Source of the DNA: a phage
Reading direction: 5' to 3' (one strand)
Sequence record: NC_101835.1
Length of the DNA stretch: 64,000 nt
Numbering within the stretch: position 1 is the first letter of the stretch; every line of letters starts with the position of its first letter. Below the pieces are notes generated by a model, which searched no databases, had not been told where the DNA came from, and saw only the letters and a program-made list of their open reading frames with translations. This document shows positions 5,378 to 36,031 of this stretch, one piece after another. The position numbers were made by a program, and so were the translations under genes.

Positions 5378-5415
5378 AAGTTCCAGACACATCTCAATCT
5401 GAAAGGAGTCCCAAC

Positions 5416-6210: not shown

Positions 6211-6251
6211 TATATAGGAGAGAGGGTGATATTATTCACCCTCTATTTAAG

Positions 6252-7181: not shown

Positions 7182-7206
7182 CAAACAGATAAGCTTTAGG
7201 TATTAT
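7178..7206 (+). promoter_or_regulatory. sigma70-like promoter (TTGACA-17-TATTAT)
   Basis: Resembles the 4856 promoter (GTTGACAAA ... AGGTAT.ATTATCG). Confidence 0.55.
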
Positions 7207-7236
7207 TATCGGACAAAACAAGGAGAAGGAGATAGT

Positions 7237-20877: not shown

Positions 20878-21079
20878 CACACAATTAGCTGCCCGGCTAA
20901 AGTGCTGGAAGCACCTATAACACATCTTTCAACTAAATTTCCTACCACCACAATCACTTACCTCCCACACATGACTGTTTGCTTGTTTAGTGAGCAGTCA
21001 TGCCTTGACATTCTTGCCTATCCTGATAAAATTAAGTTCTTCTCTTTTCTTTTACCGAGTAATTCGGGTTTTCTGTTCT

Positions 21080-21300
21080 CTTCGGTTTGAAGGGGTATGG
21101 AGATACACCTGAGTGAACAGGGTGAACAACCGAACCTTTGGCTATGGCATTAGCATGGCGAAGCGGACGGGTGACGAAAGAGGGGCCGGAGGACACCAGT
21201 CACTGCCATATGATATATGGGTGATAACCTGAAGAGTCTGAATAAGTGTTTAAGTACCAGTCAGAGGAAAAGGTGAATGGTAGCCGAAGGGGGGAGGGGG
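21080..21300. other. GC-rich structured island in ORF-free region (possible ncRNA)
   Basis: Several short hairpins with GAAA/GCGAAG-type loops, ends in GGGGGGAGGGGGGG; no ORF. Confidence 0.3.
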
Positions 21301-22439
21301 GTTTCTTGTATCTTTAATTTGTATATTATGTATACACTTGTAAACCAATCTAATCTGAATCTGTTTACCACACAAAGCGGATAGAGACAAATATTGCCTA
21401 TTAAACTTGAATTATTTATAGAAAATACCACAACACTACTTAAGTCTTTGATTTTACACACAAATCCTGCAGATATTCACCCTCCATATTTAACATACTT
21501 GTAACATATTCCATACTCTACCTGCCCGATCAATTCACCCAACTACATCCCCATATTTTCCCTGTCTGTACTACCCCTGCCCCGCCGGGAGTCCCATCAT
21601 ATCTGGCTTTCCAGCAAATATCACACCCACAAATATCATTGCCTGAAGAGGGTTTCATCCCATAATACCTGCCTTACCTGAAGAGCGCTTCATACACCAC
21701 GTAAATTTTTTAATTGACCTCCCCCTGCCCCGCCGGAGAGGTTGGCTTTTCCCACACAGACCTGAAGAGTCAGCCAGAAATATCTGAATAGGCCCAATTC
21801 TACCACGATTTTGACCTGACCTACAGGGAGGCCCGAAGGGTCTAGCTTTCAGCTAGAGTCCTTGCAGGACCTACAGGAGCGCTGCCAGGCGGACGGAATG
21901 GGAATACTTCTCATTCTTATAACAATTCTCAAATATCGAGGCAGTGAGAGAAATTAATAGGCCAGGCCGTTCACACAGTGGCACAACATTTGCAACCTAT
22001 TTTGTGTGGATGAATGAGAATACCTATCATTATGAGAATAGTTATCATTACTGGCAATTTAACATAATACCCATTATGCGCACCACTGGCGATCCATACA
22101 GGGATTGATAACATGAGTTACTGTTTACGCATATAACAATTATATTTATTACTATTTGTGTTGGGTATAGTTAGCAGCCGATAGATTAGATATTGACCTG
22201 CAGACTTCCAACTGTCTAGACGTCTAAACGCCCACACAGCAAGGATTATACATACACAACTGAATGTAAACAGGGCCGCAAAAATGCTACCATACCAGAT
22301 TGTAAATTTTTCATGCAGCACTTGACAAAGAGGAGGAAAACTTGTCTGACATACTGTGACATAATATGACATAATAGTGACACACTGGGCATACTCAACA
22401 CTGGATACAATAACAATTGTTACTATTGCATGCCTCACT

Positions 22440-22750
22440 GTTCACGCATAGATGATAAGCCATGCCATTCGTTTGCATGACAATAATTAACTTGTTTACA
22501 ATCTTTCACTGGCTATGCCAGGTGACCTTTGGTCACCCCTTCGGGTGTTTCTATGACATAATATAAAAGCAGGGCAACTATTAGAAGATCTATAGTTGCC
22601 TTGCTTGTTATGTCATGATTAACTAAATACAAGGCAACTATGATCTGATTAATAGATTGCAGACAAACTATCACGGGGGTGATGGTTACTGCTTTTATAT
22701 TATGTCGCGACTCCGTCGCGCCATGCCATTCGTTTGCATAGTTGCCTTAT
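22440..22750. repeat. nested palindrome and direct-repeat complex
   Basis: GCCATGCCATTCGTTTGCAT twice (22459, 22720); GGCAACTAT/ATAGTTGCC arms four times; GACATAATATAAAAGC inverted at 22555 and 22691. Confidence 0.6.
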
Positions 22751-23351
22751 TGTTACAGGTAAAATAATTACATTATTAATTATTTCTTATCTTTCTCTTA
22801 GTCATCTAATGATTCCAGTCAGTATAGTAATGTACAGTAAACATTAGACGACTAAATATTTCTCTGTTTATGATAACTCACCGTGACAATTTCGGACTGT
22901 TTACGAAAAATGTTGACACCTAAGCTGATTTATGTTATGCAGTTTACACGAATAATTATTTTATGCAGGTATTGACTATTCCGTTATTCTGTGGTTGGAA
23001 TAAATACTTTGCAGGCTATAGAATGGCGTGCGTACATGAATTCTGAGATCTGGCGGCTATAGTTATACTCGATTTTTCACGTAGAACACGCTTTTTAGTT
23101 TGTGTAAGTGTATGACTTATAAGAATTTTTACTTGTTGACAAGATATTGAAGATCTGCATCAGGTTAAAATTTGTGCAATAGCTGCATTACGTGCAATTT
23201 TGGAAGGGAAAACGGGTAAAAATAGCCCTGCTACCACACAATGAAAAGTTATGCAATAGTTATTTTACATGTATATTTGTACAGTGTGTGGGGTTGATGG
23301 CTCGTCAATTATTCCACTTGCCAGGTAGGGCCGTTTATGGTAGGAGAAGAG

Positions 23352-23381
23352 CAGACAAAAAGAAAGGGGCCTAAGCCCCTT
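23352..23381 (-). terminator. rho-independent terminator closing the leftward array
   Basis: On minus strand AGGGGC-tta-GGCCCCT followed by TTCTTTTTGTC, just after the stop of 23400-23819. Confidence 0.6.
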
Positions 23382-23399
23382 GATAATTCAGTTAAAAAA

Positions 23400-23819
23400 T
23401 TATAATGATTCGTATATTTCAAAAATCCGATTTGCCAGGTCGTTACGGTAGCGGAATTTTTCCTCACGTTTGATCATAAGATCTTTATAGCCGTACTCTT
23501 TAAGCACTTCATTAACTTTATGGCGGCATACTTTCATATTATCCTGCGCGTCACCAATAAATCTGTTGCTATGGTGCATGGCTTTAATTTCTTCTTCCAG
23601 GACCAGGGCAACTATGCGGACCGGATCAAGCTGATAGGCGGTAACATCCATGCGGCATTGTAAACGGCTTTTTACGTCTGCCACCGGATATACTGCAACC
23701 TCTTCCCCGTCAACATTGACAATAATTAGTTTACCATCGATTTCGAATCCTTTCGCCGCCGGACCGTGACAAAAAGCGTTATCAAAGCTATATGCCGGAT
23801 TATTAGATTTAATGTTCAT
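23400..23819 (-). CDS. hypothetical protein
   Basis: Own promoter (TTGACA-17-TATATT on minus strand near 23890-23862); RBS AAGAGG. Confidence 0.55.
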   Translation of the reverse strand: MNIKSNNPAYSFDNAFCHGPAAKGFEIDGKLIIVNVDGEEVAVYPVADVKSRLQCRMDVTAYQLDPVRIVALVLEEEIKAMHHSNRFIGDAQDNMKVCRHKVNEVLKEYGYKDLMIKREEKFRYRNDLANRIFEIYESL

Positions 23820-23963
23820 GGTGTTTTTACCTCTTAGTTAATTTTCTTACAACTTCCCTTCAAAAAAGAATATAGCAAAACTGCCGATCCCTGTCAACCA
23901 GGGATAGCATAATTTTTATGTGATCAAGGGGCTTTATTGCCCCTGACCATGTAACTTGTTGTA

Positions 23964-24227
23964 TTATTTGTTGCTCATCCAGTTTTCCCAAGCTGCCTGA
24001 TAATCTGCCTCACTACGGCGGATCTCTTCTTGCTCTTCAAGGCGGATCTCTTCTTCCAGGTACCCCAAGATGTCAGCCTTTTTAGTCTGGCGCAGCATCC
24101 AGTCATCTTTTTTGCGAGTGAAGATCTTATAAGCTTTCTCGCAAACCTCTTTTTTGCTACCTTTCTGGACTTCAAGAACACGATAAGCCATATATTGAAC
24201 TAATTTGAGCTGATCAAGACGTTTCAT
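23964..24227 (-). CDS. hypothetical protein
   Basis: Leader hairpin GGGCC-aaaa-GGCCC (24260-24273) then cacaaagaggtaaacatc-ATG. Confidence 0.55.
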   Translation of the reverse strand: MKRLDQLKLVQYMAYRVLEVQKGSKKEVCEKAYKIFTRKKDDWMLRQTKKADILGYLEEEIRLEEQEEIRRSEADYQAAWENWMSNK

Positions 24228-24287
24228 GATGTTTACCTCTTTGTGCGGTTCTGATTAGTGGGCCTTTTGGCCCGTGTCATTATCTTA

Positions 24288-24560
24288 TTACTTATGGCGG
24301 CAGAATTCAAGCGTTTTTAATTGATAATCTTCCTCAGCTTGGAGTACGACCGCCTCGATCATTTCGTTGGCATTGTTAAAGCCATAACCTTTAGCGAACT
24401 CATCCGCGCCACCTTCGTGATCATGTTCTGCGTTCATCGCTTCCACAAAATGGAATTCCAAATTGTTGAGGTAGGGGCTTGATGTTCCGTCCTCTTTTTC
24501 GATGAGATCCCAAATAGCATTAAAACGTGATTCGACTTCTTGATTAATCCAGCTTGACAT
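24288..24560 (-). CDS. hypothetical acidic protein
   Basis: Leader hairpin GGGCA-aaag-TGCCC then RBS. Confidence 0.55.
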   Translation of the reverse strand: MSSWINQEVESRFNAIWDLIEKEDGTSSPYLNNLEFHFVEAMNAEHDHEGGADEFAKGYGFNNANEMIEAVVLQAEEDYQLKTLEFCRHK

Positions 24561-24668
24561 AGTGTTTTCCTCTCTCCTGGTTGTTGTGTGGGCACTTTTG
24601 CCCCTTCAAGATAAATGTTACCCCACCCCATGGCAGATGTCAACGGTTTTTATAGTTCTTATATGACA

Positions 24669-24711
24669 GGCAGGCCCGGTGATTGTCTCCCCCCGTCGCC
24701 AGGTGCCTGCC
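24669..24711 (-). other. conserved 43-nt stem-loop element, copy 1
   Basis: GGCAGGC...GCCTGCC imperfect hairpin just after a TTGCAA-16-TATACT promoter; related copies at 33658 and 33809. Confidence 0.5.
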
Positions 24712-24771
24712 GTGAAACAAGTATAACAAAAAACAGGACCATTGCAAGCCCTGTTTTGTAGTTTATAAATA

Positions 24772-24963
24772 TTATATTTTTTCGCCTATGTAGTCCGGTC
24801 GGTTTTTCTCTGTCATGCGCTTTAGCAATTCTTGCATGTTGCTTATGGCTTGTAGTGTATCCCCTTCCAGGCTTGAATCGACATAATCAGGATCGTCTAT
24901 GACCTTTCTATGATTATGATAACGCAGTACCGCCAATACCTTTCTGACTTGTTCGATATTCAT
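24772..24963 (-). CDS. hypothetical protein
   Basis: Track ORF. Confidence 0.5.
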   Translation of the reverse strand: MNIEQVRKVLAVLRYHNHRKVIDDPDYVDSSLEGDTLQAISNMQELLKRMTEKNRPDYIGEKI

Positions 24964-24975
24964 TTTTACCGCTCT

Positions 24976-25110
24976 TTAAAACAAGGTGCCAACCGTTTCC
25001 AATAGATCACTGACTGCCAGGACAATACCGATCAGCACATATCTAACCATAAGGGGAAAGAGCGCCAATATTGCCACCACAATCCCCAAGGTGATAATTA
25101 TCTTTCTCAT
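24976..25110 (-). CDS. small membrane peptide (about 44 aa)
   Basis: MRKIIITLGIVVAILALFPL...; below track cut-off. Confidence 0.3.
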   Translation of the reverse strand: MRKIIITLGIVVAILALFPLMVRYVLIGIVLAVSDLLETVGTLF

Positions 25111-25112
25111 GG

Positions 25113-25406
25113 TTAACGGTTCACGTAAGTTTTCCCGTTCACGGTTATGGGCAGATCCTCCAGGTCTGGATCTTCCTTAAGGTCGCGAGCAAGCTCACCG
25201 CACCGGATACCCTCGAATCCGTAGTACTCTGTTGTGCCGTCCTTAAAAGTTTTAGCGGCAAGGCATAAGCGATAAGTAACCCCGATTTGATTGACGGCAT
25301 GAATATCCGTTAGATTAACCTCTTTTGCCAGCTCTTTAGCCATTACAGGCGCATTAAGTCCAACAACCAGGGCAACCACTGCGATCATCTTTTTCATTGT
25401 GTCCAT
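25113..25406 (-). CDS. secreted protein (signal peptide)
   Basis: MKKMIAVVALVVGLNAPVMA signal-peptide-like N-terminus. Confidence 0.55.
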   Translation of the reverse strand: MDTMKKMIAVVALVVGLNAPVMAKELAKEVNLTDIHAVNQIGVTYRLCLAAKTFKDGTTEYYGFEGIRCGELARDLKEDPDLEDLPITVNGKTYVNR

Positions 25407-25488
25407 CCTCTTTCTGCTACGTTTAAGGCGGCGGTAACCGCCTGTTTATGCTTTGTTGGTTAATTTTCGGGTATAGGTATAAATTAAA

Positions 25489-25704
25489 CTATGCTGTACG
25501 CTCAACTATAACAACGGCTTGAGGGATCTCACCTTCAACCACTATCAAGGCTTTTTTCTGCGTGATAGATATCTTTACCCGCTTCAGCGTGGCGGTAAAA
25601 TCTTTCATTTCGTCACGTGGTGTTTTAGTGCAATACCAGATCTCAGGCTTGCCGATCTGTAAGTTGCGTAAAAATTCTGTTTTGCCTGTTTTGTTAGTGA
25701 TCAT
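25489..25704 (-). CDS. hypothetical protein
   Basis: Track ORF. Confidence 0.45.
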   Translation of the reverse strand: MITNKTGKTEFLRNLQIGKPEIWYCTKTPRDEMKDFTATLKRVKISITQKKALIVVEGEIPQAVVIVERTA

Positions 25705-25713
25705 TTGGCAACC

Positions 25714-25818
25714 TCACCCGATACCGTTGGAAGACAAGATCGCATTAGCCATGGTTGCAATCAGGCCAATACCCAGGGCAATAACCAAGATCACTGCATC
25801 GATTAATTTCTGTTTCAT
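25714..25818 (-). CDS. small membrane peptide (34 aa)
   Basis: MKQKLIDAVILVIALGIGLIATMANAILSSNGIG; leader hairpin 25854-25873. Confidence 0.3.
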   Translation of the reverse strand: MKQKLIDAVILVIALGIGLIATMANAILSSNGIG

Positions 25819-25895
25819 GGTGTTTATTCTCTTCTGTTAGTAACCTTATTCATGGGGCCGCTACCACAGCCCCAAGGTAAGGCAGCTATGTGCTT

Positions 25896-26141
25896 TTAGT
25901 GTTTCATTCCAACCATCGCGGCACGGATCGCCGTAGTGCTGTACTTGAAGCCGTCCGGGGTCTTATCTTGTCCGGTTAGCTCCAGAAAAAGCATCATATC
26001 CCGCGCCGCATCATTACGATTAGCATTGGCGTTAATAAAGCCTTGGGCCAACCGGTACAATGACTCATCGTTATTAATCCAAAGGCTTACATTCCAATGA
26101 GTTTTGTTTTTGTAACCGTTATAACCTTTATTGCTTTTCAT
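25896..26141 (-). CDS. hypothetical protein
   Basis: Leader hairpin GGTGG...CCACC then AAGAGG RBS. Confidence 0.55.
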   Translation of the reverse strand: MKSNKGYNGYKNKTHWNVSLWINNDESLYRLAQGFINANANRNDAARDMMLFLELTGQDKTPDGFKYSTTAIRAAMVGMKH

Positions 26142-26232
26142 GGTGTTTACCTCTTCTTTGTTCCAGGTGGCGGATCATTCTACCACCTTATGTATTATGC
26201 TTTGTTAGATGGTTGTTTGTTGTCAAACTATT

Positions 26233-26412
26233 TTACCGATAATCATCATATGCTTTATTTACCTGGCGAATATAACATTCAAAAGCCAAATCAATAGATT
26301 TATATTCACGGATATACTCACCATAGGAAACCACATACATTTCTATAGCTTCCTCATATGCGAGGAGAATAGAATCTAAGCCTACGATCTCAGTCTTTGC
26401 AATAATAGCCAT
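26233..26412 (-). CDS. hypothetical protein (59 aa)
   Basis: MAIIAKTEIVGLDSILLAYEEAIEMYV...; just below track cut-off. Confidence 0.35.
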   Translation of the reverse strand: MAIIAKTEIVGLDSILLAYEEAIEMYVVSYGEYIREYKSIDLAFECYIRQVNKAYDDYR

Positions 26413-26487
26413 GATTTTTTATCCTCTTTGTGGTTGGTGGGGTTCGTTGCCCCTTTGATTTATATATTACAGTCTTATATGGTCATG

Positions 26488-26721
26488 TCAACTATTTTCA
26501 AAAAATTTTTCTGCTGTGATATTCTTCCCGGTAGGGTTCGCTACTTTCAAAATTTTATCATGCACTGGACGCCCAAAAGAATAAGCGCCGTACACAGTAA
26601 ACCAATAATCGCCGTCAGGTTGTACTATTACTGCCGCATATGGTACGCCTTTTTCGTTTTTGCTGACAAAATAGATCACGTTGCCATTAATAGCCTCGGC
26701 GCGTTTAATTTGTTCCATCAT
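26488..26721 (-). CDS. hypothetical protein
   Basis: Track ORF. Confidence 0.5.
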   Translation of the reverse strand: MMEQIKRAEAINGNVIYFVSKNEKGVPYAAVIVQPDGDYWFTVYGAYSFGRPVHDKILKVANPTGKNITAEKFFENS

Positions 26722-26777
26722 GATGATTTGCCTCTCTTTATTTTCATAATTGGGGGGCCTTTTCGGCCCCGCCAGGT

Positions 26778-27062
26778 TTATTTATTGATAGCGTGCAGCG
26801 GGAAAGGTACGCCAGGTTGATAGATAACCTTTACAACCTCATCAGGACAAAAGAAGTTGCAGAACTCACCGCAATAGGCCTCATCCTCTTTCAACTCTTC
26901 ATCAACATACTCAAAAAAGTAGTCGATGCTTGGATAATCTTGACCAGGGTTATAATCAACCATAGTGAGGACCAGTTCAAGATCATTGCGGATGATATGC
27001 ATACCAGCTTTTAAATACTTCGCTTCCATTTTTACTACATCGCCAGCGGTAACAATAGCCAT
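26778..27062 (-). CDS. hypothetical protein
   Basis: Internal ATG (MAIVTAGD) with GGAG RBS; track ORF extends to 27128. Confidence 0.5.
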   Translation of the reverse strand: MAIVTAGDVVKMEAKYLKAGMHIIRNDLELVLTMVDYNPGQDYPSIDYFFEYVDEELKEDEAYCGEFCNFFCPDEVVKVIYQPGVPFPLHAINK

Positions 27063-27293
27063 GGTTTTAACTCCTGTTTCTGTTAATGATTGGAGGCATA
27101 ACCCCCCTCGACAACTCTTATTATCCATATTGTAGGGCTTGATGCAAGTACTTCTTTAAAAAAAAAAATTTTTTAAGTGCCTTGGAGGCCGCTGTAACGC
27201 CAAAATAATAAAGGCCATGCAACCGCATAGCCTTTATGTGATTATATCGCTGCAGGCCCTGCTAGGGGCCTTATTTTGCATCATTTGCCGGAA

Positions 27294-27602
27294 CTATACA
27301 GAGAAAACATCGTTCACAATAGCGATCACAATGCCGCCCACCTTGTCACGGTCAACAATGCACAAATCACCATAGATCATGTGGTAGTCTGGATGATCTT
27401 TCACGGAATAGTCAATGAGCGTTTTCTTGTCGTCCAGCTTTGTAACTTCCATTCTCATAACGATATGAGAATCATCAAAGGCATTATTCCGAAAAGTCAT
27501 AGCCTGACCACCAGGGCACCCAGTGATCTCCACTTCCACACCGTCTACGATCTGACCATCAAAGAAATAAAGATTATTAGCCAGGATAAACATGTTTATC
27601 AC
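27294..27602 (-). CDS. hypothetical protein
   Basis: Directly downstream of conserved 45-bp element copy 1; RBS AAGGAG. Confidence 0.55.
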   Translation of the reverse strand: MINMFILANNLYFFDGQIVDGVEVEITGCPGGQAMTFRNNAFDDSHIVMRMEVTKLDDKKTLIDYSVKDHPDYHMIYGDLCIVDRDKVGGIVIAIVNDVFSV

Positions 27603-27639
27603 TCCTTGTTAACTGCGTGTTATTTTACCACGATTAAAA

Positions 27640-27685
27640 TTTACTTTACTGATGGCCCTGGCGTCAAGGCCATCTAAAAATAAAT
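27640..27685 (-). promoter_or_regulatory. conserved 45-bp promoter/hairpin element, copy 1
   Basis: Minus strand TTTATTTTTAGATGGCC-TTGACGCCAG-GGCCATC...TAAATT: 7-bp stem flanking a -35-like TTGACG, then a -10-like hexamer. Confidence 0.45.
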
Positions 27686-27886
27686 TTACAGGCCTACAAT
27701 CTCTTTGATTCGTTTAACTGCTGCCTCAGCGCCTTGGGGGTAGAAATTATGGTAACCGATCACGCGAGTGATACTAATCGCAGTTTGATGATCTTCATAA
27801 TAGCCCTTGAAGATTTCTTGACCGTCAATCAGCACGGCAATTTTTTCTTCTTTTTTGAAGTTAATAACGCGGATATTGTTGCTCAT
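27686..27886 (-). CDS. hypothetical protein
   Basis: Leader hairpin GGGGA...TCCCC then AAGGAG RBS. Confidence 0.55.
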   Translation of the reverse strand: MSNNIRVINFKKEEKIAVLIDGQEIFKGYYEDHQTAISITRVIGYHNFYPQGAEAAVKRIKEIVGL

Positions 27887-28027
27887 TTTGTTTCTCCTTT
27901 CTGGTTTTTGTGTTGGTGGGGATTAGCTCCCCGTTGATTATTATTATCCATATTTCGGACCGGATTGCAACACCCCGGAAGAAAAATTTTTTGAAAAAGT
28001 TAGGCCCCCAGGGATCGGGGGCCGTTA

Positions 28028-28147
28028 TCAGTTACTTACAGCGATAAAATACATCCCTACGCCTAACAATATTTCAAGGGCGATGATCTCAAGCCATACC
28101 ATAACCCGGCGCACCTTATCGGTGCGGGGCTTATCCTTGGTTGTCAT
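28028..28147 (-). CDS. small membrane peptide (39 aa)
   Basis: MTTKDKPRTDKVRRVMVWLEIIALEILLGVGMYFIAVSN; below track cut-off. Confidence 0.3.
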   Translation of the reverse strand: MTTKDKPRTDKVRRVMVWLEIIALEILLGVGMYFIAVSN

Positions 28148-28407
28148 CGTCTCCCCCTTTCATCCTGGTAGTAGTGACGTGGTTTACAATGGCCCCCAGG
28201 AGTACCATCACCACGCACATCACAAGAAAAATTATCTCTGTCGTTGTTCGATCCATTGTTATAAAATTCCTTAAGATCAGGCCTGAAAATAAAGCGTTCG
28301 TTATTGAATCCATCACGCCAGGCGGCTGGCTTCAAATCTTCATCAAAGGGATTAATTAACGTGGTATTATTTAAACGGCTGGCCCACATATTTTCTATTC
28401 CTCTCAA
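28144..28407 (-). CDS. hypothetical protein (start uncertain)
   Basis: Track ORF; overlaps neighbouring ORF in another frame. Confidence 0.3.
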   Translation of the reverse strand: MRGIENMWASRLNNTTLINPFDEDLKPAAWRDGFNNERFIFRPDLKEFYNNGSNNDRDNFSCDVRGDGTPGGHCKPRHYYQDERGRR

Positions 28408-28738
28408 ATAGGCGATCCGCCTCAGTTAAACAAATCTCATGGGCGTGATCTCTGGTTTTAGCTTCATCGAAAACCTGTTGTGCAAGGCTGCAGCGTAGGG
28501 AGACTGGAAGATCACTATAATAGGCGTTGACAAATGTTTGCGCGTCATACAGGTCGGAAAATACTTTACCCTTTCTATTATCGCCTTTGTCAACAATTGC
28601 AAGGATAACAAGTACAATAGTTGCAACCACCCCCAGGAAAATAGATATAATAAACCATAAAAAGGCGGATCTACCCATCTTGCCAGCGATCCAGGCGTTA
28701 AACAAGGCAACTAATACGGCCAAAATAATAAATTCCAT
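28367..28738 (-). CDS. membrane protein (2 TM)
   Basis: Internal start MEFIILAVLVALF...; two hydrophobic helices. Confidence 0.5.
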   Translation of the reverse strand: MEFIILAVLVALFNAWIAGKMGRSAFLWFIISIFLGVVATIVLVILAIVDKGDNRKGKVFSDLYDAQTFVNAYYSDLPVSLRCSLAQQVFDEAKTRDHAHEICLTEADRLFERNRKYVGQPFK

Positions 28739-28802
28739 TCTATGTACCTCTTTTGCAGTTCTGTTTAACAATAAGGCGGCAAATATGCCGCCTGTTACCT
28801 GA

Positions 28803-29183
28803 TTAAAAATTATCGCCGTAAATCTTTCCGCTTTCTGCCCACACCACCACGCGGGGCATACTATCCCACACGTCTTGTTTTAGATTGAGCGCGTGCAATT
28901 CTTCGGTGGTGCCCATACCAGGCACGGGCTGATTGTATACTGCAAAACGACCACCCGCATAGTCATAGGCCAGAGTTAAATCACACTGGATCATCTTTTT
29001 GATCATGGCATTAAGCATGGCGTTAGCCGCATACTGATCACGTTTTAAAGGCAACTCTTTGATTAGTTTGCGATAGTTTTCAATGTGATCGCACACTGTT
29101 TCACGTGGAAGATCTTTCATATCCTCGCGAAAGGTAACCAGGTTAAACATGACGGTGTCAATAGCTTTAGTAGTGTTTTTCAT
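28803..29183 (-). CDS. hypothetical protein
   Basis: Internal ATG at 29183 preceded by AAGAGG and leader hairpin. Confidence 0.55.
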   Translation of the reverse strand: MKNTTKAIDTVMFNLVTFREDMKDLPRETVCDHIENYRKLIKELPLKRDQYAANAMLNAMIKKMIQCDLTLAYDYAGGRFAVYNQPVPGMGTTEELHALNLKQDVWDSMPRVVVWAESGKIYGDNF

Positions 29184-29207
29184 GATGTTTTCCTCTTTGT
29201 TTTGTGT

Positions 29208-29228
29208 GGGGGGCAAACGTCTTGCCCC
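29208..29228 (-). promoter_or_regulatory. 5' leader stem-loop (example of a recurring class)
   Basis: GGGGCAA-gacg-TTGCCCC about 8 nt after a TTGCAA-16-TATATT promoter and 25 nt before the ATG. Confidence 0.5.
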
Positions 29229-29273
29229 TTGAGTTTTAATATAGCAGGTTTTTAGATTATTGCAACACTTTAT

Positions 29274-29897
29274 TTATGAAAAACTCATCTCTCCATATTC
29301 ATCCACATCAAACCGCCAATCATTGGCCTCGATAAGGCCGATCAGGTTTTCGGTAGTAAATTGTTCAAGATAAGCTTGCTCCAGGTCTACGTAAACCTTG
29401 CGGGATAGTTCCCGTACGTTCTCGGTGATCAACTCTTCCAGCTCTTCAACCTTACTTTCTTGCTTGGCTGTCAGGTCTAGCCATGTAGTATCGATGTACC
29501 CGCTTACAGTGTTTTCGTGACTATAGCGGCTATATGGATCACGCTCAACACTTGCGGATAGCTCGCCATCGTGCATTGTGCCGAACAAGTGACGAATTGA
29601 GCGGAATTTAGTCAGAGACTTGACTTTACGCAAGAATTTTTCTAAATCCACGTTTTCCGCACTGATTGACGCGCCGTCGCCCTGGCACCAAAAGCCGGAC
29701 CAATGTACCTTGGTATCTTCAAGGCCATACTCTGGAAAGATATGTTCTTTATAGTCTTCAATTACACTTTCTGCAAAAAAGTTATCCCCGCTGTGTTCTT
29801 CTCTTTCGCGGACCATTTCAATAGCTTTTTCTTTTTGTTCATCGGTCAGCACGTCGAAAGATAAATTGTAACCTGTGGTAATGTTAACGGTGGTCAT
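29274..29897 (-). CDS. hypothetical protein (207 aa)
   Basis: Leader hairpin GGCGGGAA...TTCCCGCC at about 29925-29945. Confidence 0.55.
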   Translation of the reverse strand: MTTVNITTGYNLSFDVLTDEQKEKAIEMVREREEHSGDNFFAESVIEDYKEHIFPEYGLEDTKVHWSGFWCQGDGASISAENVDLEKFLRKVKSLTKFRSIRHLFGTMHDGELSASVERDPYSRYSHENTVSGYIDTTWLDLTAKQESKVEELEELITENVRELSRKVYVDLEQAYLEQFTTENLIGLIEANDWRFDVDEYGEMSFS

Positions 29898-29971
29898 GAT
29901 ATTTTCTCCTATTTTCTTTGTTAGTGGCGGGAAGTTTTCCCGCCTGTGTGTTTAAGTATACTTATCGAGAT

Positions 29972-30232
29972 TTACTTGTCAACACTATTTTTTAAATTAT
30001 TGTGGCGCAAAATGCTTAAAATCTCTTCAACGTCATCAACACGGCGGCAATTTTTAAACGCTACCAATTGCCCCATGATTTTAATCACTGGACGGCCTTG
30101 CCAGTGCCCCTGGAGAAAGCGCGCCTTGACTTTATCGGTGGAACTATCACGCCACCAAATGGCCTTGTTATTGCAGTAGTAAAAATTATTCAGGACAACA
30201 TCAACTTTATCAAAATTTTTTAATTTACGCAT
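29972..30232 (-). CDS. hypothetical protein
   Basis: Track ORF. Confidence 0.5.
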   Translation of the reverse strand: MRKLKNFDKVDVVLNNFYYCNNKAIWWRDSSTDKVKARFLQGHWQGRPVIKIMGQLVAFKNCRRVDDVEEILSILRHNNLKNSVDK

Positions 30233-30478
30233 GGCGTTTACTCCTTCCTTCTTGCTTTGATGTGGTTAGTATATCCGGACTATTCCAAGGTGTCAAGCTT
30301 TAAATAAAATCACTGTCAATGATATTTTTTAACACCATAAAACGGCCCTGGGTGATGTTTTCAGGTTAATAAAGGGGATTGCATAGGTAGGGGCTTTTGT
30401 GGCGTTTGTGGGGCCAACCAGGGGCGCTATTCGTAGGATAGAAATAAAAAACCCCGCACAATGGCGGGGCGTTGGTTG

Positions 30479-30676
30479 CTATTTGTCTTTGTGGCGGTAT
30501 CGTTCCGCTTGTCGTTCACGTTCCAAAAGCAGGCTGGGTAATTTGCGATCATAGTGATTTCGCCAGATCTTCCCAAATCTTTTCGGCTTATTCAGTTTAT
30601 TGTTACGCTGGCGTCGTTCCGGCAGCTCTTCGGAATCATGAGATCGCTTTACAATCTTCTCAAAATTAATCTTCAT
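30479..30676 (-). CDS. small basic protein
   Basis: Internal start MKINFEK; Arg/Lys-rich. Confidence 0.45.
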   Translation of the reverse strand: MKINFEKIVKRSHDSEELPERRQRNNKLNKPKRFGKIWRNHYDRKLPSLLLERERQAERYRHKDK

Positions 30677-31019
30677 ATATTCCCCCCTTGCTAACTTCAA
30701 TATTGGCCTGAATAGCCCGGATACGGCGCTTTATAACCTCCTGATCCTTGCAATCATATCCCCAAAAGTCTACGATTTTTGCGCCTCCAGCCTTTAGGCG
30801 GTATAGTGTTTCTTGCATCTTGTAAGCCGGGATCGGTCGCGGTGTTACCTGGTCGCCCTTCTCATTCTTGTACTTGATAATGTAGTCTTCATTGTCGTTG
30901 AATACCCAAAATGGGTATTCTGTGAGCGCGTTGCTCTCTTTTTCGTTTTTAGATTGGATCTTGTTTACAATTAAAGCCGTAGCAATAGCGCCAATAATAA
31001 AACTTGCCCCGCTGATCAT
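30666..31019 (-). CDS. membrane-anchored protein
   Basis: Internal start MISGASFIIGAIATALIV (TM). Confidence 0.5.
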   Translation of the reverse strand: MISGASFIIGAIATALIVNKIQSKNEKESNALTEYPFWVFNDNEDYIIKYKNEKGDQVTPRPIPAYKMQETLYRLKAGGAKIVDFWGYDCKDQEVIKRRIRAIQANIEVSKGGIYED

Positions 31020-31094
31020 GTACTTTCTCCTTTCATTGTGTTGATAAACTATCTTTATAGATGGCCCTGCTACCAGGACCACCGAAAAAACAGC

Positions 31095-31340
31095 TTATTT
31101 GACGATACCGACAAAACAGATCCCGCCTTCCCCTATATAGGCAATATCGGTAATTTTATAATTTGTCAAGATCCGCGTGTTCAGATCATTAATAAAATCG
31201 GTCATCGCGTTGGTGTGGTTGTCTTCCGTGTCTAAGGCATAATCCCAGGTGTAAACCTTTTTACGTCCGAAGCCTTTTACCATGATACGGGCGCTTTTGG
31301 TGTTGGTAGGGGCATAATATTTGGTGATTAGTGCTGCCAT
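31095..31340 (-). CDS. hypothetical protein
   Basis: Downstream of conserved 45-bp element copy 2; RBS GAGGAG. Confidence 0.55.
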   Translation of the reverse strand: MAALITKYYAPTNTKSARIMVKGFGRKKVYTWDYALDTEDNHTNAMTDFINDLNTRILTNYKITDIAYIGEGGICFVGIVK

Positions 31341-31382
31341 GGTTTTAACTCCTCTGAATTAGTTCAGTGTTAACAGTATAAA

Positions 31383-31427
31383 GTTTACTTTATTGATGGC
31401 CCTGAAGTCAAGGCCATCTAAAAATAA
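31383..31427 (-). promoter_or_regulatory. conserved 45-bp promoter/hairpin element, copy 2
   Basis: GTTTACTTTATTGATGGCCCTGAAGTCAAGGCCATCTAAAAATAA, near-identical to copy 3. Confidence 0.45.
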
Positions 31428-31429
31428 TC

Positions 31430-31771
31430 TTACTCGTTTTCTTCCAGCTCCGCAAGCTCTTCTTTTGCTTCTTCTAACTCTGTCTGTAGTTCCTGGTATT
31501 CTTCATCGTCCTCAATATCCAGGCTGTCGATGTAGTCGCTAAATCCGCAGCGGTAAGCGATAGGATCTAGCTCCTTGAGGATACGCGACGGAAGAAAAGA
31601 AATGTTTCCGATCATAATTTCGCCGTAGATCTCGTCTAACCATTCATCATAGTTTTCGTCGTACTTGTCCTCGTCGATTTCAAAGTTATCGATCTTGTTC
31701 TCAAGGTCTGCGATCTGTTTTTTCAGCGCGGCGATCTGCATAGCTTTTTCTGCGGCGGTCATAGTAGTCAT
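31430..31771 (-). CDS. hypothetical acidic coiled-coil protein
   Basis: Leader hairpin GGGAA-gtt-TTCCC then RBS. Confidence 0.55.
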   Translation of the reverse strand: MTTMTAAEKAMQIAALKKQIADLENKIDNFEIDEDKYDENYDEWLDEIYGEIMIGNISFLPSRILKELDPIAYRCGFSDYIDSLDIEDDEEYQELQTELEEAKEELAELEENE

Positions 31772-31850
31772 GGTGTTTTCTCCTTTTGTGTGCTCTGGGA
31801 AGTTTTCCCGTTTACGTGTTTAAGTATATCGATCTAAGTTAGTTTGTCAA

Positions 31851-31970
31851 TTAAAAATTTAAGAAAAATTTTGCAAAACTGTTAGCGCTACTCATTAACA
31901 TTTGCGCCAGGATGTAACCGACAACGCAAACGATAATAGTTACCTTTGTGTATTGGCGTGTAGTGCTCAT
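31851..31970 (-). CDS. small membrane peptide (39 aa)
   Basis: MSTTRQYTKVTIIVCVVGYILAQMLM...; follows element copy 3. Confidence 0.35.
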   Translation of the reverse strand: MSTTRQYTKVTIIVCVVGYILAQMLMSSANSFAKFFLNF

Positions 31971-32004
31971 CTTAAAGCCCCCTTTTTTCGCTTAGTTGAG
32001 ATTA

Positions 32005-32049
32005 GTTTACTTTATTGATGGCCCTGAAGTCAAGGCCATCTAAAAATAA
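32005..32049 (-). promoter_or_regulatory. conserved 45-bp promoter/hairpin element, copy 3
   Basis: Same sequence as copy 2; directly after the stop of 32052-32546. Confidence 0.45.
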
Positions 32050-32051
32050 AC

Positions 32052-32447
32052 TTAGTAAGTTTTCAGTACTTTACCGTCCAACCTGTCAAGCTGGATCTCG
32101 ATAGCTGCAGAAAACCTATTGTAAACCACATCGCCCATAGAATCCAACCAGTCTATGACATTATACACCTGCTCTTTATTCTTGCAAGTCCGGATCCGTT
32201 TCATTACGTAAGACGGATCAATATTAGTGCTCCCGTTGTTGTGGTCATGCGCCTGGCCTGCTGCACTGGTTATAGATTTTACAACCACCTGAAAGGGCTT
32301 TAAGGTGCCTTTTGCGTTCATCTCACGCGCTTTTGCGGCGCGGTTGTTATATGTTACACAACGGCGGCAAATGTTGACTAAATGCATGTCAATAATTTTT
32401 TCATCGTTTGCCAGTTCGTTCATGATGCGGCGTACGTTCTTATTCAT
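32052..32447 (-). CDS. hypothetical protein
   Basis: Internal start MNKNVRRIMNE after leader hairpin GGCGGGAA-aca-TTCCCGCC. Confidence 0.5.
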   Translation of the reverse strand: MNKNVRRIMNELANDEKIIDMHLVNICRRCVTYNNRAAKAREMNAKGTLKPFQVVVKSITSAAGQAHDHNNGSTNIDPSYVMKRIRTCKNKEQVYNVIDWLDSMGDVVYNRFSAAIEIQLDRLDGKVLKTY

Positions 32448-32530
32448 GATCTTTTTTCCTTTGTGCTGGCGGGAAACATTCCCGCCTTTTGTGTCTAGTT
32501 TACTTAAATTTTGCAGCGTGTCAATGATTT

Positions 32531-32929
32531 TTATTCGTGGGCGCATGTCACAATGTGCTTTTTATAGCCCAGGTGGTCAGCAAGTGCCGACAAAAACTCT
32601 TCTTCGTAGATCCAGCCGTCGGCAGTGATCCCCATAGCATTTAATGCGCTCTCAAGTGCTGCGTTAGCTTTATCGTAACCGTGACCGCTAGCCTTGCCGC
32701 CAGTATAACCGTACTTATTGTTCTTGTTGTCGTGAATCCAAAACACGCAGTAGTGAGTGTTACCACTGGCGGCGGCATAATACCGGATCTCAGCTACTTC
32801 GTGCAAATTATTGTCATCGTCCAGGCCCACCAGATTATAAGCCTTGTAAAATCCACGATCACGGCGGCAGTTCTTGACATCAGAAAAAGAAAAGTCGGCA
32901 TTATCAAAATTAAAGGTTGTGGTTTTCAT
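32531..32929 (-). CDS. hypothetical protein
   Basis: Track ORF; RBS AAGAGG. Confidence 0.55.
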   Translation of the reverse strand: MKTTTFNFDNADFSFSDVKNCRRDRGFYKAYNLVGLDDDNNLHEVAEIRYYAAASGNTHYCVFWIHDNKNNKYGYTGGKASGHGYDKANAALESALNAMGITADGWIYEEEFLSALADHLGYKKHIVTCAHE

Positions 32930-32993
32930 GATTTTATCCTCTTAGTGTCTTTTGTGATTTCAGTATATTTTGTGTCAGACTACATGTCAATAT

Positions 32994-33191
32994 TTATTTT
33001 TTATTAAACCAGTGGTTGATCTGACCTTTTGTCAGGGCGCAACGATTAAGCTGTTGCAGGGTATAGCTATGACCGCGACGAAATTTATAAAGGCCTTGCC
33101 CGTTGTTGATGGTTACATCCACCCGGCAAATCACTTGATTGGTGACCACCTGGCGAGTGTTGCGACGTACTTTAATTCCGTAGGCGTTCAT
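32994..33191 (-). CDS. small basic protein
   Basis: Internal start MNAYGIKVRRNTRQ; RBS AGAGAGGA. Confidence 0.45.
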   Translation of the reverse strand: MNAYGIKVRRNTRQVVTNQVICRVDVTINNGQGLYKFRRGHSYTLQQLNRCALTKGQINHWFNKK

Positions 33192-33277
33192 GATTTTTTT
33201 ATCCTCTCTGTTAATTGGTGTGGTGTTGTTCACCTTGCGAGGATAAGAATAACAAGAACTGTCCGAGCTGTCAACCA

Positions 33278-33454
33278 TTAGTTAAAATTATTTTTTGGGT
33301 AGAATTCTCCAGCCGCCGCCCCTGCCAGGTTAACCATCATTTTTTCGTACTCTTCTTTATGTTCCAACGCTCCCGCCATAGCCTTTTCAACCAGGGCGAT
33401 AGCCTCAGCGTCATTAATAGCTACATTTTCCAGGGGGATCATATTACCTTCCAT
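33278..33454 (-). CDS. hypothetical protein (58 aa)
   Basis: MEGNMIPLENVAINDAEAIALVEKAMAGALEHKEEYEKMM...; RBS GAGGAGG. Confidence 0.35.
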   Translation of the reverse strand: MEGNMIPLENVAINDAEAIALVEKAMAGALEHKEEYEKMMVNLAGAAAGEFYPKNNFN

Positions 33455-33657
33455 TTTTGTACCTCCTCTTCAATTGTTACCTATCCTATAGCATAGGCCC
33501 ACCAGGTTTACAAGCCTTCATTCTCCCCTACCTGGTCAGTTAGGTCCTGCCAGGCTGGCCCCGCCAGGTTGCAGCGGTTAGCGCATCAGGTTAGAAAAAT
33601 TTTTTGAAAAGTGTTGACAGCGGCCCCGCCAGGTGGCACAATATACCTATCGAAAGG

Positions 33658-33693
33658 ACGGCAGGCACTGGTGACGGGGGAGACAACCACCGG
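33658..33693 (+). other. conserved stem-loop element, copy 2
   Basis: GGCAGGCACTGGTGACGGGGGAGACAACCACCGGGG, homologous to the reverse complement of 24669-24711. Confidence 0.45.
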
Positions 33694-33808
33694 GGATGGG
33701 CGCTGCATAAAATGAGAACGATTATCATTATCATTTAAAAATTTATGCAAAAAATCCTTGCTTTCTTTGTCCTGTGTGATACTATAATAACAAGCCGGGG
33801 CAACAGGG

Positions 33809-33832
33809 GCCGGGAGACAATCACCGGGCCTG
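33809..33832 (+). other. conserved stem-loop element, partial copy 3
   Basis: CGGGAGACAATCACCGGGCCTGCC matches the 3' half of the 24669 element. Confidence 0.45.
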
Positions 33833-33949
33833 CCCGTTATTCTGCAAACGAGAATGATTATCATTCAAAATTCTAAATGAGAACTCCTCGCATTTAATAA
33901 ATTTAATTAGCACGCTAATTACCTACCGTGACAATTATATATAAAATAA

Positions 33950-34440
33950 TACCTCCTAAAATATTTCCATATACAAATTTTAAAAATCCATTTCTGAAAA
34001 CGAAAAATCGATTTCGTCCCCAAAAATTTCAGGTCGAGATCCGGAACGATTTCCAGAAAATCCGATTTAGAAAACGAAAAACAGATCGAGTACTGAGAAA
34101 TTTATCGAGAAAAATTTTCAGAAAATCCAAGCCATGAAATGAAAAGTAGATCGAGTACTGGAAAAATTGTACCGCAACCCACTGATAGTGATGGGTTTTC
34201 CGTCATAAATCACTAAGAGTGAGTGGAGAAAGGTATGGTGGAGAGGTGTGTATGTGTGGGAAATCTGTAATGGTGGCCTGAAATATGGTGCAAACGGCTA
34301 GATAGATTGGCACAATTTTCCGCGCCTGTGTTGAAAAAATCCATTTTAGTTTTCGATCCATTTTCTGATTTTCTAAGGATTTTAAAATATCCTGGTAGGT
34401 AAAATATCAAAAGGAGGAAATCCATTTTAGAAATCCCCCT
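33950..34440. repeat. AT-rich iteron region
   Basis: GAAAATCC(A/G)(A/T)TT five times, AGATCGAGTACTG twice (34083, 34148), palindrome TAATTAGC-ac-GCTAATTA near 33903. Confidence 0.55.
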
Positions 34441-34470
34441 TATACTTGATATGCCAGGAATTTTCAAGTA

Positions 34471-34800
34471 TCAGTTGTCTTTGTTTTTAGGTTTGTACAT
34501 GCGCAGAGGTATGGTCTTTGTAACATTCCATTTCCTCAACCCTTCCCAGCTCCAGTTGTGGGCGTGGTATCCGGTTATGCATGCACTACTGGAGTGATCG
34601 TAAGCATAAGAGAACGCTAAGCGCACCAGGTGGGGCCAGTCCTTCCATGGTTGTGGACCGTAAGCTTTTCTCCAACACCGACACAAACTAAATGTCTCAA
34701 GGATAGGAAGGATAACAAACCCATACACTGTCACCAAAATAGTCAGTGCAATGATTGTCAGGAACACATACCCTGCAGTTGAAATGATGATCTCTGTCAT
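34471..34800 (-). CDS. membrane protein
   Basis: N-terminal TM; ATGA coupling. Confidence 0.5.
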   Translation of the reverse strand: MTEIIISTAGYVFLTIIALTILVTVYGFVILPILETFSLCRCWRKAYGPQPWKDWPHLVRLAFSYAYDHSSSACITGYHAHNWSWEGLRKWNVTKTIPLRMYKPKNKDN

Positions 34801-35000
34801 TTGTCGTCCCCTTTCTTACGGATATAAATGTGAGAACCTGCCTGTATATAAATTTCTCGACCATCTTCTGCGAAGATGTGGAATACACGGTCACCTTCGT
34901 ACTCAATACGAGATATCTTCATAGTGGTCTTCCCACCGGGGATACGGATCTCATCACCCACAGCAATGTTCCATGCGGATTTAAGCTTAAACATCAGCAC
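34797..35000 (-). CDS. hypothetical protein
   Basis: Track ORF. Confidence 0.5.
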   Translation of the reverse strand: MLMFKLKSAWNIAVGDEIRIPGGKTTMKISRIEYEGDRVFHIFAEDGREIYIQAGSHIYIRKKGDDK

Positions 35001-35232
35001 CCTCCTTTGGGAACTTAAACTCTGGCATAGCCATGTACGCTACAACAGGGTTGTGATCAAAGTAGAACTGACCGTTAATTATCCCGGTTTTGTCCACATA
35101 GTTACCAGATCCTGCAAGAACAACCTCGCAAGCTCCGAAATCCACATTGCCATCCTCATCAGCCATGGCTACGATATACTTTCCAAGAGGCATGTTTTTA
35201 ACGCCGTCTACAAATGTCCACTCTGTGTTCAT
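34987..35232 (-). CDS. hypothetical protein
   Basis: Track ORF. Confidence 0.5.
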   Translation of the reverse strand: MNTEWTFVDGVKNMPLGKYIVAMADEDGNVDFGACEVVLAGSGNYVDKTGIINGQFYFDHNPVVAYMAMPEFKFPKEGADV

Positions 35233-35241
35233 ACTTTACCC

Positions 35242-35574
35242 TTAAGGTAGCCAGTAAACAATCTCGCCTTTCAGCTTCATGTCGTTTCCAACATAAATTT
35301 CCCAGCCATCCATCTTAGCCACTGCAGGAGTGAAGTCCGTAGAACCACTAACCTCTTTCCAAGTCCCGTAGTCAGGTTGCCAGATATAGAATCCACCTTC
35401 CTTGTCCCATGCTCCATATACCACATCGAGCAGGTTGCCCATTGCAACAATAATAGGCCGTGGGAATAATACATCTACAGATGCGCCACAATTTCGGGTA
35501 TCTTTTAAGTTGCAATCCCAAAAGATGTCTGCCAGTGTGGCGGCGATAGCTTTACGTCTTTCCAATGTTACCAT
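35242..35574 (-). CDS. hypothetical protein
   Basis: Track ORF. Confidence 0.5.
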   Translation of the reverse strand: MVTLERRKAIAATLADIFWDCNLKDTRNCGASVDVLFPRPIIVAMGNLLDVVYGAWDKEGGFYIWQPDYGTWKEVSGSTDFTPAVAKMDGWEIYVGNDMKLKGEIVYWLP

Positions 35575-35581
35575 ATCATAC

Positions 35582-35773
35582 TCACTTGTTGTTAAGAAGT
35601 TCTAAAACTTTCTGTTTTACTTTATCAAGATCTGTTGATTCAAAAACTGTGCGATATCCCCAACTTTGCCCGTAGGAGTGACTGCAATCCCCGTAGCACC
35701 ATTGCTCAATTTGATAGTATTCAAGGAACGGGTGCTGTCTAACTATGATACCATCCCGGTTAAAAATTACCAT
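35582..35773 (-). CDS. hypothetical protein
   Basis: Track ORF. Confidence 0.45.
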   Translation of the reverse strand: MVIFNRDGIIVRQHPFLEYYQIEQWCYGDCSHSYGQSWGYRTVFESTDLDKVKQKVLELLNNK

Positions 35774-35836
35774 AATACATCACTCTCTGTTAGTTTATGC
35801 ATATATTATACACTGCAGTTTTCAGATGTCAATCTT

Positions 35837-36031
35837 TTACAGGTTACTCCAGTATAATCGGCATTTACATTTTGGGCAATGAGGTTCTTTTATGTAATAA
35901 CCATCAGTCTTTGGAACACTTTTTGGTGCAGTTTTAAGATTGTACCTGGTAAAACATCGGAAGCAGGTTACCTCTCCCACCTGTTGATCGTTGATCCACT
36001 CACCAGAGTAAAGCTCTTTCTTGTTTCTCAT
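35837..36031 (-). CDS. small zinc-ribbon protein
   Basis: Internal start MRNKKELY; CFRC...CPKCKC. Confidence 0.45.
   Translation of the reverse strand: MRNKKELYSGEWINDQQVGEVTCFRCFTRYNLKTAPKSVPKTDGYYIKEPHCPKCKCRLYWSNL

Follow-up and report, generated by a model that had tools for sequence, protein, structure and literature searches.

Organization of the locus

The window analysed here is the whole stretch of 64,000 nt taken from the phage record NC_101835.1, which derives from an rV5-like coliphage of the genus Vequintavirus, and the element in question is a short intergenic cassette whose copies we labelled s1, s2, s3 and s4. The cassettes lie in the stretch between positions 27 and 33 kb, which shares 96-97% identity with phage JES2013 and occurs in 123 phage records. 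Genes were placed by carrying the JES2013 annotation over to the window through translation, and every intergenic region was then inspected. The genes of the cassette region are on the minus strand and form a string of small open reading frames (ORFs) with unknown function, arranged in short operons headed by strong sigma-70 promoters (TTGACA, a spacer of 16-17 nt, then TATACT or TAAACT; 10-12/12 matches to the hexamers). A GC-rich hairpin follows many of these operon promoters in the 5' untranslated region (UTR), canonical terminators close several operons, and most long intergenic regions of the stretch hold a promoter. The four cassettes depart from this operon-head pattern, being located inside operons, where they start in a stop codon and end 33-44 nt before the next ATG.

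Cassettes s3, s2 and s4 sit between a promoter and a terminator on the minus strand. The promoter (32497..32524; TTGACA-16-TAAACT, 10/12), found by the promoter scan and by the intergenic inspection, lies upstream of all three, so its transcripts must read through them; the terminator (30451..30470), which closes this operon, is a canonical intrinsic one with GCCCCGC...GCGGGGT followed by TTTTTAT. The remaining copy, s1, sits in a two-gene unit headed by a promoter-like site (27943..27970; TTGCAA-16-GATAAT) and closed by a terminator-like hairpin (27208..27237), both also on the minus strand.

Four copies of a genus-specific cassette

The original prediction, made from the letters of this window, had described three near-identical cassettes and had proposed that they are a distinct promoter class or a promoter gated by a factor that binds their palindrome. 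A degenerate 44-nt pattern found exact plus-strand matches at 27640-27683, 31384-31427 and 32006-32049 (3 matches versus 0.00 expected in 100 dinucleotide-preserving shuffles), and the repeat is therefore real. The first of the predicted starts, 27640, is exact, and the other two, 31383 and 32005, are one base off (31384 and 32006). The predicted placement directly after a stop codon and a short distance before the next gene also held, since every copy starts where the upstream minus-strand gene has its stop codon. A diverged fourth copy had been missed, s4, which occupies 31047-31097 with 69% identity (repeat family D2) and is also a 2-mismatch match to the stem pattern.

To describe how the cassette is distributed, a covariance model (R1) was built from the cassettes (alignment A1). 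It finds the four copies in the window, and their four orthologues are its only matches in the whole genome of JES2013. BLAST places the cassette in 120 phage records, all of them Vequintavirus, at about three places in each. Pattern and protein scans of IMG/VR gave just two true Vequintavirus contigs, the remaining pattern matches being single and due to chance, and for this reason the covariation data described below were taken from GenBank relatives. The cassette was absent near distant homologues of the 113-aa protein encoded upstream of s2 (loci L008-L014). An Rfam scan of positions 21000-36000 (E up to 5) returned no family at the cassettes except a chance match to SurC at s4 (E 1.4). 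Among the proteins that flank the cassettes, all of unknown function, there is no hint of a dedicated binding factor. The cassette is a small genus-specific family and not a genome-wide promoter class.

Some records deserve comment. In phage Gotham, s3 (L001 6484-6544) has lost 5 nt from the 3' arm of the upper stem described below, which abolishes both the hairpin and the spacing between the -35 and -10 hexamers; either this copy is dispensable or the deletion is a sequencing error. Seventeen 'Campylobacter phage' records (MG065635-MG065690) also matched, those listed being 95-97% identical. Two examples (L049 and L050) are flagged UNVERIFIED and classified as genus Vequintavirus, and the 'Campylobacter' host label is probably wrong or a result of contamination.

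A predicted two-part hairpin on the transcribed strand

The 7-bp stem GATGGCC/GGCCATC that had been predicted is present, and as minus-strand RNA it belongs to a larger structure with a 10-bp upper stem and a lower stem of 10-13 bp. The predicted fold of the sense (minus) strand starts at the upstream stop codon and totals 20-23 bp, with a lower stem of A-U pairs that a 2x3 internal loop separates from the upper stem, which is closed by a tetraloop. The hairpin of s3 spans 32004..32052 and starts in the stop codon (32052-32054) of a 131-aa gene, its upper stem and loop occupying 32017-32040 in the fold. The hairpin of s2 (31382..31430) starts at the stop codon of the 113-aa gene. That of s4 (31044..31098) follows an 81-aa gene and has the internal loop UC/UAU and the apical loop GUAG, and that of s1 (27637..27687) follows a 66-aa gene and has the internal loop UA/AGU and the apical loop ACGC. 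All four lie on the minus strand.

Folding energies of the sense strand ranged from -22 to -28 kcal/mol (z -5.4 to -7.4), compared to -10 to -17 for the plus strand. The individual values were -25.0 kcal/mol (z -6.3) for s3, against -16.9 on the plus strand; -22.3 kcal/mol (z -5.7) for s2; -28.2 kcal/mol (z -7.4) for s4, against -10.1 on the plus strand; and -23.1 kcal/mol (z -5.4) for s1. We give most weight to the diverged s4 as evidence on the structure. Its 23 pairs include five G.U and zero mismatches, and relative to s1-s3 the 5' arm of its upper stem shows three transitions, all of which keep the pairing, while its apical loop and -35 region are wholly different (CTGGTA in place of TTGACT).

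Covariation was assessed on 63 copies (46 distinct, from 17 sources), with the caveat that the alignment was fitted to the model and that the sequences are closely related. Among the 46 distinct copies, 98.8% of cells form standard pairs, compared to 34-58% when the partners are slid, and four pairs of the lower stem vary on both sides (for example G-C/G.U/A-U at one and U-A/C-G at another). The non-Watson-Crick cells comprise 122 G.U on the sense strand, 6 A.C and 5 other, and the mean folding energy was -24.4 for the sense strand versus -15.1 for the antisense strand. Copy s3 of the IMG/VR relative L007 has gained two bases, one within the apical loop and the other on the 3' side of the internal loop, which widens the spacing of -35 and -10 to 20 and leaves the hairpin intact. 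The strand asymmetry and the covariation support the predicted fold. Because s4 and L007 keep the hairpin while the -35 or the spacing changes, these comparisons point to selection on the single-stranded fold of the sense strand, most simply in the mRNA.

Resemblance to the early RNase III sites of phage T7

We retrieved the early region of phage T7 and folded its intercistronic hairpins R0.3, R0.5, R1 and R1.1, the sites of ribonuclease III (RNase III). These have an upper stem of 9-10 bp, a loop of 4-5 nt and a 2x3 internal loop, and the likeness to the cassettes extends to letters within the internal loop: UA/AAU is common to T7 R1, s2 and s3, and UC/UAU is common to T7 R0.3, T7 R1.1 and s4. 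Positions 8 and 9 of the upper stem are U.G and U-A in s1-s3, in the same register as T7 R1.1, and C-G and U-A in s4, as in T7 R0.5. Both sets of hairpins are intercistronic, lie in early operons transcribed by the host polymerase and form on the sense strand; the lower stem can include the upstream stop codon in T7 as well (R0.5), and promoters adjoin or overlap the RNase III sites there too (Escherichia coli promoters B and C; phi1.1A, phi1.1B and phi1.3). The cassettes differ from the T7 sites in lacking detectable primary-sequence similarity to them, in a longer lower stem that is nearly pure A-U, in the -35-like hexamer of the apical loop and in the first and third pairs of the upper stem, which depart from the T7 preference. 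They also belong to a 137-kb myovirus of another family, and cleavage here is predicted only.

The T7 cleavage coordinates, which we take to be 890, 1468, 3138 and 5887 after Dunn and Studier 1983, fall directly after the 3-nt side of the internal loop in 4/4 sites; they are internally consistent, and this placement lends support to the coordinates as well as to the register. By analogy with T7, the predicted cuts on the minus strand would be after the U at 32014 in s3 (between AAU and AAAG), after 31392 in s2, after 31057 in s4 and after 27648 in s1.

Covariance models matched in both directions. When model R1 was run unfiltered on 6 kb of T7 (12 kb counting both strands), R1, R0.3, R1.1 and R0.5 made up 4/5 of the matches, with weak E-values (0.13 to 7). 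The reciprocal test was stronger. A model built from the four T7 sites alone (R2) and run unfiltered on both strands of the 64-kb window (128 kb) ranked s3 (28.9 bits, E 2e-5), s4 (27.6 bits, E 5e-5), s2 (26.2 bits, E 1.3e-4) and s1 (24.1 bits, E 6e-4) as matches 1-4, all full length and on the sense strand, and the fifth match fell to 17 bits. In the whole JES2013 genome, the four orthologous sites were the sole R2 matches under E 1e-3.

We also compared the cassettes with the published determinants of RNase III cleavage, which describe two helical turns (about 20-22 bp), a distal box with UA/UG about 9-10 bp from the cut, and a proximal box with A-U/U-A at position 2 and, in R1.1, a non-canonical pair at position 4 (PMC1540722, PMC3867540). 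The preferred proximal box reads G-C, A-U/U-A, A-U, A-U/U-A, and G-C or C-G at position 2 acts as an antideterminant; single-strand cuts at internal loops leave protective 3' hairpins (PMC1540722, PMC3867540). The transcribed strand of the cassettes provides a helix of 10 + 10-13 bp, a 2x3 internal loop at the target site as expected for a cut in one strand, and a distal box with U.G at 8 and U-A at 9 in s1-s3. Under an assumed R1.1 numbering, position 2 of the proximal box is A-U in s1-s3, which is acceptable. The published rules fit the cassette, the proximal box being only partly favourable.

Together, the fold, the operon context and the comparisons with T7 suggest that the cassette is probably a T7-type RNase III processing and stability hairpin placed between early cistrons, which in s1-s3 overlaps a plausible sigma-70 promoter and which, being a repeat, also serves as a recombination site. 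Several points weigh against this interpretation. Positions 1 and 3 of the proximal box (R1.1 numbering) are U-A and G-C instead of the preferred G-C and A-U, T7 R1 itself having C-G at position 3, and s4 has G.U at position 2, where the purine 2-amino group inhibits. A sequence-only model made from the T7 alignment matched no cassette, so the likeness to T7 is one of shape and loop letters and not demonstrable homology, and any two-part hairpin of T7-like geometry would score. The E-values of the covariance models are roughly calibrated, and s1-s3 are near-identical, so that effectively two independent sequences were compared. That AC is invariant in the apical loop of s1-s3, next to two variable loop positions, suits a constraint on a -35 better than a pure RNA role. 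Sequence alone does not discriminate between an RNA hairpin and a hairpin of single-stranded sense-strand DNA. The lower stem is nearly pure A-U and would be opened by ribosomes that terminate at the stop codon. The literature searched held no Vequintavirus transcriptome or cleavage data.

Other matches of the T7-derived models were noted. The fifth match of R2 (E 0.07) is the terminator-like hairpin that closes the unit with s1. Written AAGGCUAUGC-GGUU-GCAUGGCCUU-UAU (27204-27237, minus strand), it resembles the upper stem of T7 R1.1, is the best match of the sequence-only model (E 0.23), is followed by a U-tract and scans as a terminator. At the loci of the distant homologues (L008-L014), only weak matches to the T7-derived model were seen. 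L008, L009, L010 and L012 are unrelated viral contigs with a 48% identical homologue of the 113-aa protein. In L008, L009 and L010 the weak matches are at 4438-4494 and 6469-6517 (E 0.01-0.03), located at the 3' ends of the listed ORFs 4209-4433 and 6311-6472. L012 has repeated intergenic cassettes of its own at 4700-7250, spaced by about 530-600 bp.

Promoter-like hexamers within the cassette

The hexamers of the original prediction, a loop TTGAC(T/G) with TAAA(C/T)T 18 nt further on, were found in the three copies, each with 9/12 matches to a sigma-70 promoter. On the minus strand they read TTGACT-18-TAAACT in s3 (32004..32033) and s2 (31382..31411), and TTGACG-18-TAAATT in s1 (27638..27667). 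In s3, TTGACT (32028-32033) lies partly at the top of the upper stem and partly in the apical loop, and TAAACT (32004-32009) coincides with the final six bases of the lower stem. On these letters it is quite possible that s1-s3 hold a real internal promoter of moderate strength, because by chance only about 6% of stretches of 50 nt would contain such a site. The promoter expectation is plausible for s1-s3, while s4 is without a -35. What did not survive is the notion of a distinct class, since the hexamers are of the ordinary host type and weaker than those of the neighbours, and the whole genome of a relative has only four copies.

An alternative that we judge to be unlikely is that the cassette is mainly an ordinary sigma-70 early promoter, internal to the operon, in which the hairpin is incidental or modulating. 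The form TTGAC(T/A/G), 18 nt, TAAA(C/T)T with a T-rich tract upstream speaks for it, as does the density of chance sites (about 35 per 30 kb, or about 0.06 per cassette), and a promoter is what most long intergenic regions here contain. TAAACT is also the -10 of the adjacent promoter at 32524, and the PhagePromoter program called s1 and s2 in phage Gotham on the same 30 nt. Moreover, the loop letters AC are invariant in s1-s3 while the following two vary, with the exception of s3 in L007, where TTGATA is still a good -35. Set against this are the loss of the -35 in s4, where the hairpin is kept with its G.U pairs, and the spacing of 20 in L007 s3, where the hairpin is intact. Compared to the canonical early promoters nearby, with which they share TTGACN and TAAACT hexamers, the cassettes have the lower score and an 18-nt, suboptimal spacer, and their hairpin spans the whole promoter whereas that of the canonical promoters lies in the 5' UTR. 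A role at the DNA level would also leave the bias toward G.U on the sense strand unexplained. The tables of promoters and terminators in the rV5 paper lack the motif, and the GenBank record of rV5 annotates nothing at these sites. Existing annotations conflict, with a promoter in Gotham, a terminator for the s4 orthologue in Murica and nothing in rV5.

Hairpin promoters of the N4 type, which have a short stem and a 3-nt loop and depend on the virion RNA polymerase, were considered and dropped; no such polymerase is annotated in JES2013. Immediately downstream of s1, at 27623-27631 on the minus strand, lies an extended -10 motif, TGGTAAAAT, which is conserved in relatives as TGTTAAAAT. It resembles TggTAaAAtA, the motif proposed for late promoters in the rV5 paper.

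Loss of a module between two copies and comparison with PeSLs

Between s3 and s2 lies a two-gene module (31433..31970, minus strand) with ORFs of 39 and 113 aa and a promoter of its own (11/12). The corresponding 622 bp are missing in ECP26, ECP32, phiWec189 and ime (4 of the best 60 records) and in the IMG/VR contig L029. Alignment of ECP26, ime and L029 revealed a single hybrid cassette with the left flank of s3 and the right flank of s2. Since ime belongs to V. murica, whose type phage Murica keeps the module, the deletion has recurred. As read from the aligned junctions, recombination between two copies of the cassette has deleted the 622-bp module in at least four phages.

A length difference of +334 bp among relatives, suspected to be bounded by cassettes, was placed at 27281/27301, beside a terminator and not at a cassette, and was set aside. 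When 27281-27301 is compared with L002 776-1141, SophiaRose and several others carry an extra segment of about 365 bp (a 116-aa gene), and this insert adjoins a bidirectional terminator.

These deletions recall the PeSLs (promoter-early stem-loops) of phages RB49 and phi1, in which a sigma-70 promoter is combined with a stem-loop that overlaps the -35 in some subclasses and contains G-T pairs, the whole opening with a stop codon amid AT-rich sequence (PMC2839356). Further hallmarks of PeSLs are a strong consensus promoter, many copies gathered in hyperplastic regions rich in ORFans, termination or attenuation of transcription by the stem-loop, and the formation of mini-circles. Recombination between PeSL copies gives rise to indels among close T4-like relatives (Arbiol et al. 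2010, PMC2839356; Comeau et al. 2014, PMC4122927). The cassette could likewise be a mobile element of this type, composed of a promoter and a terminating stem-loop, that insulates ORFan modules and shuffles them by recombination, an explanation to which we assign a low probability. Much of the composition agrees, in that the cassette has a stop codon at its start and AT-rich sequence around it, combines sigma-70-like hexamers in s1-s3 (9/12, an 18-nt spacer and T-rich sequence upstream; none in s4) with a stem-loop that has G-T pairs and overlaps the promoter boxes, the -35 included, and is followed by a Shine-Dalgarno sequence and an ATG. It is flanked by small ORFans, the rV5 record notes RB49-like ORFans in this region, and close relatives differ by an indel, the 622-bp module, whose junction lies inside the cassette and whose loss recurred in separate lineages. 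The ORFan-rich region holds only four copies per genome, in contrast, compared to the dense series of dozens in RB49, and its long two-part stem is not of the GGGG...CCCC type and fits RNase III sites, not terminators. A U-tract follows the stem on neither strand, which argues against intrinsic termination as far as the letters can indicate. In addition, any 47-bp direct repeats would recombine to the same deletions, and in the literature searched PeSLs are reported for T4-like phages only, whereas this phage is not T4-like.

A second repeated cassette family is present in the same region, on the minus strand at 32445-32533, 31769-31853 and 29895-29982. It consists of a strong sigma-70 promoter (TTGACA, 16-17 nt, TATACT or TAAACT), AAACAC and a GC-rich hairpin (GGCGGGAA..TTCCCGCC) in the 5' UTR, immediately ahead of the Shine-Dalgarno sequence. 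This family looks closer to a classical PeSL than the cassette studied here.

Explanations without cleavage or without RNA

A plain hairpin that stabilises the 3' end or attenuates transcription, or a site for a phage RNA-binding protein, in either case uncut by RNase III, is very unlikely in our estimate. It would account for a stable sense-strand hairpin exactly at the ends of cistrons and for the suboptimal positions of the proximal box, and a G-C beside the internal loop can uncouple binding from cleavage. It leaves the conserved 2x3 loop, the T7 letters and their register with no evident role in a simple exonuclease block.

The weakest of the explanations is a palindromic operator at which a dimeric regulator gates the promoter, as the original prediction had also entertained, or an intrinsic terminator; it is hardly credible, even though GATGGCC-N10-GGCCATC is a perfect inverted repeat in s1-s3 and the Murica record labels the s4 orthologue 'terminator', because the half-sites of s4 on opposite strands, GGTGGTC (the left one) and GATGGCC, agree at 5/7 positions while the RNA pairing is perfect through G.U, the departures from symmetry are almost all sense-strand G.U, the asymmetric 2x3 loop breaks the DNA dyad, s4 retains a T7-like hairpin without a -35, a T-rich tract precedes and an A-rich tract follows the stem on both strands so that the G+C-rich hairpin with U-tract of an intrinsic terminator is not found, and the terminator scan listed none of the four copies.

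A proposed model for early mRNA processing

Returning to processing by RNase III, the reading that we favour, we propose the following course of events. Host RNA polymerase transcribes the small early operons leftward and reads through the cassette, as the anatomy shows, since the cassette opens within the stop codon of the upstream gene with no terminator ahead of it. The transcript would then form a hairpin of about two turns with the asymmetric 2x3 internal loop at mid-height. RNase III of the host, presumably the enzyme involved, would cut once, at the 3' side of the internal loop (between AAU or UAU and AAAG). Such a cut would leave the upstream mRNA capped by a 10-bp hairpin and shielded from 3' exonucleases, and would free the downstream cistron with a short leader. 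In s1-s3, a moderate sigma-70 promoter could restart transcription about 7 nt beyond the hairpin. At the DNA level, the identical copies of about 47 bp serve, as a by-product, as substrates for homologous recombination, and the genome comparisons show that the genes between s3 and s2 have been lost in this way more than once.

A more far-reaching version, which we put forward as a doubtful possibility, is that the cassette is a portable expression linker joining an RNase III signal to a host promoter, such that an early gene would be cut out, stabilised and re-transcribed wherever it landed, with the repeats as crossover points between unrelated coliphage families. It would then be the counterpart, in the rV5 group, of the T4-type PeSLs, insulated by RNase III and not by termination. 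The context for this idea is that the same region has a gene like T7 gp1.1, along with the RB49-like ORFans noted in the rV5 record. The former encodes a 65-aa protein (30482-30676, minus strand) that matches Pfam PF08200, the phage T7 gp1.1 family (E 1.5e-11), and is the last gene in the operon with s3, s2 and s4; in T7, gene 1.1 is immediately downstream of RNase III site R1.1.

In the literature searched, RNase III signals of the T7 type were tied only to phage T7, and nothing tied RNase III to rV5-like phages. If the processing model is true, the use of host RNase III on early mRNAs would be a wider strategy that reaches a 137-kb myovirus of the rV5-like type used in phage therapy and biocontrol. 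It would also correct an annotation that is inconsistent across GenBank records, including the type genome. The cassettes also mark the exact crossover points for the loss of accessory early genes, which is useful for engineering these phages and helps to interpret differences in gene content among therapeutic isolates.

Other features of the window

Two further features were recorded outside the cassette operons. A 606-nt stretch between annotated genes at 33865-34473 contains direct repeats of about 65 nt (33965-34168) and long predicted hairpins, and possibly corresponds to the box marked 'non-coding' on the map of rV5. A 98-nt repeat occurs in four copies (3299-3396, 3491-3588, 6282-6379 and 6693-6790) with 61-77% identity, and these look like paralogous coding segments of adjacent plus-strand genes.

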